IMG/VR virus record: IMGVR_UViG_2690316346_000015
Span: 1 to 9,991 of that record
Source: a virus
Taxonomy: Duplodnaviria; Heunggongvirae; Uroviricota; Caudoviricetes
Length of the DNA: 9,991 nt
Strand: one strand, 5' to 3'
The position numbers and the translations under genes are program-made. The notes below the pieces were generated by a model. The model saw only the letters and a program-made list of their open reading frames with translations. It was not told the origin of the DNA and searched no databases. Positions 8,286 to 8,619 of the stretch are shown one piece after another (within the stretch, counting starts at the first letter, position 1; every line of letters begins with the position of its first letter).

Positions 8286-8441
8286 AAGTCTGCCTCCGTT
8301 ATGATTAACGGGCATCATTATTGATCGATAAAACTGGTAAATAAATCATTTTCTATCTAAAAATCAGATTATGTGTTTTCTGATTTTTGTCATACCAGCA
8401 AAAGAATTGACTAATTATTGCCACGCCAGCACAATTAAGAC

Positions 8442-8518
8442 TCATCATTTCGGTAGTGGCAGTATCCTTTGTCGCTGACAAAGCGCCTCCGGTGGCACCA
8501 TCGGGGCGCTTTTTTTTG
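8442..8518 (+). ncRNA. candidate small RNA (promoter-like element to intrinsic terminator)
   Basis: TTGACT (8407-8412), 17-nt spacer, CACAAT (8430-8435). Internal stem-loop CTTTGTC-GCT-GACAAAG. Strong plus-strand terminator at 8482-8518 (AGCGCC/CCG stem, 10-nt loop, T8). No protein-coding potential. Confidence 0.3.
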
Positions 8519-8619
8519 CGCCTGTTTTTTGTAAATGCTTTCGGGAACGTTCCGGCGTCGAACAAAAAACAACCTAATTCGACACTAAAAATTTTTATTT
8601 TGCCATATATCAATAACTT

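Follow-up and report, generated by a model that had tools for sequence, protein, structure and literature searches.

Phage and Satellite Small RNAs as Points of Comparison

Lambda OOP and P22 sar are short antisense RNAs inside phage operons that overlap a defined coding transcript, and the CI immunity RNA of satellite P4 (C4-IsrK family) arises by processing of a gene-strand leader transcript in the immunity region. The Spr RNAs of Staphylococcus aureus are base-pairing small RNAs (sRNAs) carried as cargo by pathogenicity and phage-related islands. To our knowledge, the phage-inducible chromosomal islands (PICIs) of Gram-negative bacteria have been described in protein terms only, namely AlpA, the primase, Rpp, the capsid proteins and the defense cargo; our literature searches found no small RNA described for them. 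Here, we analyze a stretch of 9,991 nucleotides recorded in IMG/VR as a virus of the Caudoviricetes (IMGVR_UViG_2690316346_000015, positions 1 to 9,991; hereinafter the window, by which we mean this whole stretch). It is not a phage but comprises two truncated copies, in tandem, of an EcCICFT073-type PICI satellite from Gram-negative bacteria. Within its second copy, we judge positions 8407-8517, on balance and with some reserve, to be probably an autonomous moron-like sRNA gene of the base-pairing type, held as cargo in a variable slot of the island.

The candidate resembles the moron sRNAs of lambdoid prophages, such as the anti-sRNAs AgvB and AsxR, Esr41 and PasA-D (PMC4104026, PMC5286369, PMC8550237), which are 50-90 nt long, start at a promoter of their own, end at a U-tailed Rho-independent terminator, and occupy a variable slot of a mobile element in an orientation convergent with or opposite to the surrounding operon; a conserved 3′ half joined to a variable 5′ half is a further likeness (PMC4104026). 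It differs from these prophage-borne RNAs in being borne by a PICI, in having no sequence or Rfam similarity to them and in being a predicted RNA. With OOP and sar it would share a length of ~70-80 nt, a constitutive promoter, an intrinsic terminator and an orientation against the flanking operon; however, its location is a non-coding spacer and it points away from the capsid promoter block, such that any overlap would need read-through RNA. Like the P4 CI RNA, it would be a satellite-encoded small regulatory RNA, but it is a predicted primary transcript from the opposite strand, next to cos, and has no Rfam match at E <= 1. The Spr RNAs are comparable as sRNA cargo of islands, while belonging to another phylum, having no sequence relation to the candidate and lacking its link to the capsid and packaging region. 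Homologs of CI and seqA have been noted in the Bro zones of PICIs (PMC10111431); these are found elsewhere in the element and on the gene strand.

Searching 8300-8700 on both strands with the Rfam 15 covariance models, including those of C4/IsrK, Esr41, AgvB, AsxR and STnc100, gave no match at E <= 1, and a scan of the whole window at this threshold returned only spurious plant-microRNA matches on iteron arrays. Three known RNAs were set aside as identities for the locus: Esr41, whose locus is in SpLE1; EcOnc33, whose locus is the Sp6 moron site; and PasB, whose locus is in prophage PP6 and whose published probe AATCCCGCAGTGATCGCGGAGCT is, like its complement, absent from 8440-8517.

A Predicted Small-RNA Gene Opposite to the Capsid Operon

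In the direction of the genes, the candidate comes after the ssb terminator and a cos site and ahead of a 64-aa gene that precedes the capsid gene. Its parts, all on the plus strand, are as follows:

8407-8412, plus strand: -35 hexamer TTGACT of the candidate sRNA promoter; TTGAC is invariant in 9 of 9 distinct promoter variants from three lineages
8430-8435, plus strand: -10 hexamer CACAAT (CAATAT or CAGTAT in homologs); positions 2, 5 and 6 are invariant, 3 and 4 vary
8440-8517, plus strand: predicted small RNA of ~74-78 nt, with a putative start at 8440-8444 and an end within the T run
8454-8477, plus strand: stem-loop 1 from folding, 9 bp with a 6-nt loop; 8454-8462 pairs with 8469-8477
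8465-8474, plus strand: 10-mer TCCTTTGTCG in the loop and 3′ arm of stem-loop 1, a candidate seed, identical in the window and main E. coli lineages
8480-8517, plus strand: Rho-independent terminator from folding and the pairing in homologs, a 14-bp interrupted stem with a GCAC loop and T8

The original prediction had described a sigma-70-like promoter followed by a strong plus-strand intrinsic terminator, an internal stem-loop and a lack of coding potential amid genes on the minus strand, and each of these elements was recovered. The promoter, TTGACT-17 nt-CACAAT, lies at 8407-8435 and matches the sigma-70 consensus at 9 of 12 positions. The terminator hairpin starts ~45 nt 3′ of the -10 hexamer, its stem AAAGCGCC(U)CCGGUG-GCAC-CAUCGGGGCGCUUU occupying 8480-8512, with eight T at 8510-8517. 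On the gene strand, only UUUG is found beyond the hairpin; hence, the terminator is directional. The plus-strand RNA of 8441-8518 (78 nt) folds at -32.3 kcal/mol with z = -4.75, none of 200 dinucleotide shuffles being as good, as compared to -21.3 kcal/mol and z = -1.85 for the minus-strand RNA of the same interval. There is no conserved plus-strand open reading frame (ORF) between the promoter and the terminator: the sole ORF there (GTG start, 8456-8632) crosses the terminator, and its start codon is missing in homologs. The real genes near the candidate are all on the minus strand.

We propose that this sigma-70 promoter fires in the direction opposite to the PICI genes, away from the capsid promoter block and towards cos, and that transcription would halt at the strong Rho-independent terminator just short of the cos-related sequence. 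The predicted product is a non-coding RNA of ~76 nt with the layout usual for enterobacterial base-pairing sRNAs, i.e., ~14 single-stranded nt at the 5′ end, then one stem-loop and a GC-rich terminator hairpin that runs into a U8 tail. As moron-like cargo expressed from the resident island, it might pair in trans with host or helper-phage mRNAs through its conserved 5′ end and the UCCUUUGUCG segment. A conserved, independently transcribed sRNA beside the packaging site would bring an RNA component into satellite biology and extend the horizontally acquired sRNAs of pathogenic Escherichia coli to a new class of carrier; were host genes targeted, the RNA would join the known instances in which a mobile element rewires the regulation of its host.

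In each of the three lineages, the -35 hexamer is enclosed by a short inverted repeat, GCAA(A)-N13-15-(T)TTGC at 8389-8429, which is a possible operator for the sRNA promoter, the divergent capsid promoter or both.

Conservation of the Module amid Diverged Sequence

A pattern search with the terminator core retrieved 32 contigs from IMG/VR and 4 from metagenomes; two further matches were unrelated and due to chance. Including E. coli loci, the homolog set amounts to 42 copies with 8 distinct RNA sequences that fall into three lineages: the window type, the main E. coli type and one intermediate (L003). By BLAST, the module is present in 144 of 5426 complete E. coli genomes, among them O157:H7, O145, O121, O111 and the enteroaggregative strain 042, and is unannotated in each. 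Copies of the RNA are located, for example, on the complement of NZ_CP042934.2, 945313-945389 (E. coli 042), and of NZ_CP038319.1, 1794037-1794113 (O157:H7 NE122); O145:H28 RM12581 is a further carrier. A covariance model of the RNA, the match of which spans 8440-8516 in the window, gave no convincing match to remote homologs in PICIs of other genera; the sole weak matches, of 20.9 and 14.8 bits, are in EcCICFT073.

The module is conserved selectively. The interval 8389-8479 is the most diverged part of the intergenic region, with ~50-60% identity versus 88-95% in the flanks, and successive segments of the window and main lineages agree at 10/18, 10-11/17, 6/11 and 6/14 positions. Kept amid this divergence are TTGAC, positions 2, 5 and 6 of the -10 hexamer (CAnnAT), the start region, the 10-mer, the terminator and the T run. 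The promoter spacer is exactly 17 nt in all sequences, although the lineages agree at only 10-11 of these 17 bases. The start region TAAGACTC is preserved at all 8 positions in three of the four compared homologs and at 7 of 8 in L003. The 10-mer UCCUUUGUCG is retained in the window and main E. coli lineages; L003 has TCGTTTGTCG.

The predicted fold follows the same lineages. On the plus strand, the three score z = -4.9, -5.0 and -3.7, versus -1.7 to -1.9 for the reverse complements, and their layout is shared: ~14 unpaired nt at the 5′ end are followed by stem-loop 1, a short linker, the terminator and a U tail. In a model-guided alignment, which leans towards structure, 97.7% of the stem cells are paired as compared to 38-65% when the partners are slid by 1-3 columns; for the terminator, 100% of the cells are paired in the 8 distinct sequences. 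The main E. coli lineage has an 8-bp hairpin equivalent to stem-loop 1; RNAalifold did not recover stem-loop 1. The covariation analysis that the original prediction had suggested returned one-sided changes: all 6 of the 6 changes in variable stem pairs lead to G-U. The terminator substitutions of L001 and L002 are of this kind, valid on the plus strand only, and the terminator additionally holds invariant U-G and G-U pairs. Since G-U pairs are A-C mismatches in the minus-strand RNA, the constraint is on a plus-strand RNA rather than on a DNA palindrome or a gene-strand terminator. Thus, the conserved promoter and terminator, the fixed 17-nt spacer and the plus-specific fold together support the idea of a non-coding plus-strand transcription unit of ~75 nt in the cargo slot of copy 2.

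Several observations weigh against this interpretation. Promoter-like matches are not enriched in the window (14 versus 17.2 +/- 4.4 in shuffles), and the promoter match taken alone is at chance level; the promoter-terminator pair stands above chance because it is conserved across homologs, not because of the hexamer match. The module is confined to one PICI sub-lineage, that of the 144 E. coli genomes given above, with related PICIs being devoid of it. There are zero two-sided compensatory changes among the 8 distinct sequences, and a set of only 8 makes the shuffle control for covariation uninformative. The register of stem-loop 1 is shifted by three columns in the window lineage, and the stem-loop is poorly formed in L003. 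Finally, the strains checked among those with published Hfq or RIL-seq maps are without the island. In Sakai it is missing from the prophages Sp9, Sp6 and Sp15, the last of which, at yehV, has an intact terminase, so the published Hfq maps obtained by cross-linking and analysis of cDNA (CRAC) and by cross-linking, ligation and sequencing of hybrids (CLASH) are not applicable to the candidate.

The Variable Slot, the cos Site and Alternative Explanations

The module is flanked by the following elements, which bear on how it can be read:

8286-8358, minus strand: leader or regulatory block of the operon of the 64-aa gene and capsid gene, from the alignment of four genera and copy 1
8359-8388, no strand assigned: inverted repeat AAAAATCAGA-N10-TCTGATTTTT at the upstream edge of the capsid-operon leader
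8518-8700, minus strand: lambda-like cos site, with a cosN-like segment at 8666-8685, an IHF consensus TATCAATAACTTA at 8608-8620 and a shared distal part to ~8525
8716-8739, minus strand: intrinsic terminator of the replication/ssb operon, GCCGGAGCAATCCGGC then T6, directly past the ssb stop at 8754

An alignment of the sequence 5′ of the 64-aa gene revealed a leader block (minus strand, ~8290-8358) that copy 1 of the window and the PICIs of E. coli, Kluyvera, Trabulsiella and Buttiauxella all retain. Immediately 5′ of it, the islands of Kluyvera and E. coli B1-56 have a strong gene-strand terminator; consequently, the capsid operon's own promoter must lie inside the block. No good sigma-70 consensus is found in the block, which may be an activator-dependent promoter. 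The slot 5′ of the block is variable: in B1-56 and Kluyvera it holds the gene-strand terminator, in copy 1 a reverse-oriented HEPN gene, in EcCICFT073 a bidirectional, mostly reverse-oriented terminator and in the window lineage the sRNA module. The HEPN gene of copy 1 sits in the same slot and the same reverse orientation as the candidate, which indicates that the slot takes independently transcribed cargo. That the locus is an "empty cargo slot", i.e., the flanks of a lost gene, was discarded: all 42 homologs have equal spacing, and the flanks of the copy 1 cargo gene are unrelated. As the leader block begins to the left of ~8390, the sRNA unit is divergent from it and does not overlap it; the candidate transcript probably runs away from the capsid promoter block with no overlap with the normal capsid mRNA. 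The hairpin upstream of the promoter, which the original prediction had placed at 8361-8386 as further regulatory structure, does exist with the extent 8359-8388 and is identical at 26-27 of 30 positions in E. coli homologs; it sits at the upstream edge of the capsid leader block, which explains it better than the role first proposed.

The leader block contains the motifs (T/A)AATCT..TTTT and TTTACCACTTTTATCGATCAATAAT, and its counterparts lie at 1434-1520 of L043 and about 3700-3800 of L005. The slot terminator of EcCICFT073 (L127, E. coli CFT073, 11263-11310) is a reverse-oriented GCCCGATAAGG...CTTATCGGGC followed by T7. The 20.9-bit model match in the same sequence, at 6012-6082, is a reverse-strand hairpin-terminator unit 3′ of alpA. 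It is possible that both are unrelated small-RNA units of this model PICI.

An RNA that is real but acts in cis is a possible, though unlikely, alternative. Such an RNA would be antisense to read-through transcripts, from either the replication/ssb operon or the helper late genes, and would keep the capsid low until induction by pairing with the leader or through collision of convergent polymerases, in the manner of lambda OOP or P22 sar. In keeping with this, the unit lies between the ssb terminator and the capsid operon but on the other strand, complementarity to a read-through RNA is perfect by construction, and helper-embedded PICIs are co-oriented with the helper late genes, which makes antiterminated read-through plausible (PMC10111431). 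However, a strong gene-strand terminator (8716-8739) already stands ahead of the cos site, and Kluyvera and B1-56 have one directly before the leader block. Moreover, the capsid leader/promoter block lies 3′ of the sRNA promoter in the gene direction, such that normal capsid mRNA should not overlap the RNA, and the selective conservation of the 10-mer within a diverged body is left unexplained.

We consider it slightly less probable again that there is no small RNA, the hairpin serving only to insulate the capsid operon transcriptionally from the replication/cos module and the promoter hexamers being due to chance. In line with this, some terminator is found at the equivalent place in EcCICFT073 (bidirectional), B1-56 and Kluyvera (gene-strand), the promoter score is unremarkable, and on the gene strand the hairpin comes after a run of A, as with bidirectional terminators. 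Yet, on the gene strand the hairpin is followed by UUUG only and has A-C mismatches in its stem, and all stem substitutions favor the plus strand. Further, while the sequence of the spacer has diverged, its length of 17 nt, the -35 hexamer, the decisive -10 positions and the start region persist, which would not be expected of chance hexamers.

The proximity of the cos site raises the prospect of a DNA-level, PICI-specific cosB element with binding sites for Rpp-TerS or IHF and a role in packaging, which we deem improbable. The window has three lambda-like cos sites (~642-721, 6124-6204 and 8640-8721), each directly after a minus-strand terminator; the hairpin that serves as the ssb-operon terminator is called a terminator in its CFT073 counterpart too. 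Our assignments of cosN and of the IHF sites are readings of the sequence by eye; CCGCGAACCGCCCGCCCCGT at 8666-8685 has a reverse complement that we take to closely resemble lambda cosN. The cosN-like core of the three sites reads ACGGGGCGG(G)CGG..CGCGG on the minus strand. EcCICFT073 has two cos sites per island and an island-specific cosB read by an Rpp-TerS complex (PMC6092414, PMC6739421). A cosB function for the region next to a lambda-like cosN, on the same side as cosB in lambda, with an IHF consensus at 8608-8620 and with the precedent of the PICI-specific cosB of EcCICFT073 (PMC6739421), has some basis. By BLAST, 8560-8720 matches the cos region of phages 1720a-02, CP-1639, mEp460 and several Stx2 phages, and the matches of the region to phages are limited to this cos part. 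The likeness to the second cos site (5969-6226) stops at ~8525, just beyond the sRNA terminator, and that to phage cos sites at ~8560, which places the sRNA module outside the cos unit; it is thus not within the shared cos sequence where a lambda-type cosB would lie. In addition, strand-specific, G-U-tolerant substitutions would not be expected of a DNA site, and B1-56 has the same cos site with another sequence replacing the module. A 10-bp palindrome, GGAACGTTCC, is indeed present at 8544-8553 as had been noted earlier, but its proposed regulatory role was not supported: ten-bp palindromes occur 11 times in the window versus 9.2 +/- 3.2 in shuffles, making it not significant in itself, and it falls within the block that this cos site shares with the second one.

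Least probable of all is a 31-aa minus-strand gene running from 8448 down to 8353 (MMSLNCAGVAIISQFFCWYDKNQKTHNLIFR), the codons of which would constrain the promoter-like bases: an in-frame product of 30-31 aa with the same stop persists in the window, L001 and L003 lineages despite ~25% nucleotide divergence, with a shifted ATG in L003 offsetting a 1-nt insertion, but we rejected it as a conserved gene on the stops in 17 of 28 unique variants (at codon 15 in 16, including the commonest, and at codon 23 in one, with 11 intact), while L002 has a 1-nt deletion in the frame, the sole Shine-Dalgarno-like motif stands 14-16 nt away from the ATG, the conserved C-terminus falls on an inverted repeat conserved as DNA, and the terminator is left unexplained.

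A Possible Target in the Helper Capsid Gene

Assuming the autonomous sRNA gene favored above, the 10-mer offers a lead to a target, as it contains an anti-Shine-Dalgarno motif. The main lineage has a 12-nt segment, CUCCUUUGUCGU, perfectly complementary to ACGACAAAGGAG of the helper prophage (L129, 3022-3033), which overlaps an AAGGAGG Shine-Dalgarno sequence 6 nt before the GTG of the helper prohead-protease/capsid fusion gene. The target site is identical in the embedding prophage and in the Stx2 phages 1720a-02 and Stx2_95, with which the PICI shares its cos site; in related prophages of other Enterobacteriaceae it shows C/T variation that G-U pairing would tolerate. Net cofold energies at the helper site are -13.5 to -17.2 kcal/mol for the three lineages, as compared to -0.6 to -10.9 at the PICI's own starts. 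In a cofold scan of 3019 windows of the helper sense strand, the capsid start ranks 1st-3rd for two lineages and ~6th for the third, with two or three other helper sites scoring as well; a first duplex scan for targets ignores accessibility and is not relied on.

The GTG in question is likely to be the true start of the helper protease/capsid gene. This ribosome-binding site and GTG start (L129, 3022-3043; L131, ~3726; L132, ~3636) lies 44 nt 5′ of the ATG annotated in NE122 and 1720a-02, and the records of Stx2_95 and B1-56 already annotate the upstream start.

The complementarity of the 10-mer to the helper capsid ribosome-binding site is barely above chance and constitutes a weak lead. A 12-nt Watson-Crick match anywhere in the 47.7-kb helper is attained by 13.6% of shuffled RNAs, and once the seed is held constant the flanks make no significant contribution, 15-26% of shuffles doing equally well. 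There is no co-variation between RNA and target: one sRNA-bearing PICI adjoins a variant target. It is thus quite doubtful, more so than the cis-acting or insulator alternatives, that the sRNA serves as an interference weapon in which UCCUUUGUCG (within CUCCUUUGUCGU) would pair with ACGACAAAGGAG and block translation of the helper capsid. In such a scheme, the capsid gene of the PICI would escape by virtue of a different, translationally coupled start. Only under this speculative scheme would the RNA be like CapR, a satellite factor that lowers the expression of the helper capsid gene; however, CapR is a DNA-binding protein acting on a promoter, whereas the RNA would act on a ribosome-binding site. 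If true, this would be a new interference mechanism and the first case of a phage satellite using RNA to interfere with capsids.

Genomic Setting of the Two PICI Copies

All genes of the window are on the minus strand with the exception of the HEPN ORF:

3-575, minus strand: DUF1441 protein (Pfam)
746-2659, minus strand: ClpP-protease/major-capsid fusion gene (Pfam)
3012-3554, plus strand: HEPN protein, AT-rich ORF (Pfam)
4117-5499, minus strand: D5-type primase-helicase of copy 1 (Pfam)
5687-5968, minus strand: 93-aa gene, the last of copy 2
6227-8094, minus strand: ClpP-protease/major-capsid fusion gene of copy 2, frameshifted (Pfam)
ATG at 8285, minus strand: 64-aa gene preceding the capsid gene, with the ribosome-binding site GGAGG
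8754-9176, minus strand: SSB (Pfam)
9722-9991, minus strand: second D5-type primase-helicase, C-terminal end only (Pfam)

Gram-negative PICIs typically measure ~10-15 kb, with genes in one direction, int, an AlpA-type regulator, a primase-helicase beside an iteron origin, one or more cos sites and, in some, a capsid gene. Of such an island, the window has the primase-helicase, iterons, SSB, capsid fusion, DUF1441 protein and three cos sites. The integrase (int) and helix-turn-helix (HTH) regulator genes are absent from it and present in full-length homologs, those of E. coli adding int, an AlpA-type HTH regulator, and Icd-like and DUF4222 genes. These full-length E. coli relatives are ~86% identical to the window in the candidate's intergenic region. 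As copy 1 is devoid of the int-to-DUF4222 half, the two islands form a truncated tandem or a recombinant array. Several of the relatives sit within the large terminase gene of a lambdoid prophage, an arrangement described as a "helper-embedded PICI" (PMC10111431).

The DUF1441 family is annotated as the small terminase subunit in helper-type phages. The HEPN ORF of copy 1, annotated as HEPN in 96.7%-identical E. coli PICIs, is likely to be defense or toxin cargo. The capsid fusion gene of copy 2 is split into the overlapping frames 6949-8094 and 6227-6985, which could be a frameshift pseudogene or a sequencing error. The junction between the 93-aa gene of copy 2 and the primase-helicase ORF of copy 1 lies at 5500-5690. 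Iteron arrays at 3897-4118 and 9457-9707, composed of direct and inverted GGTGAACAG repeats, mark the PICI replication origins.

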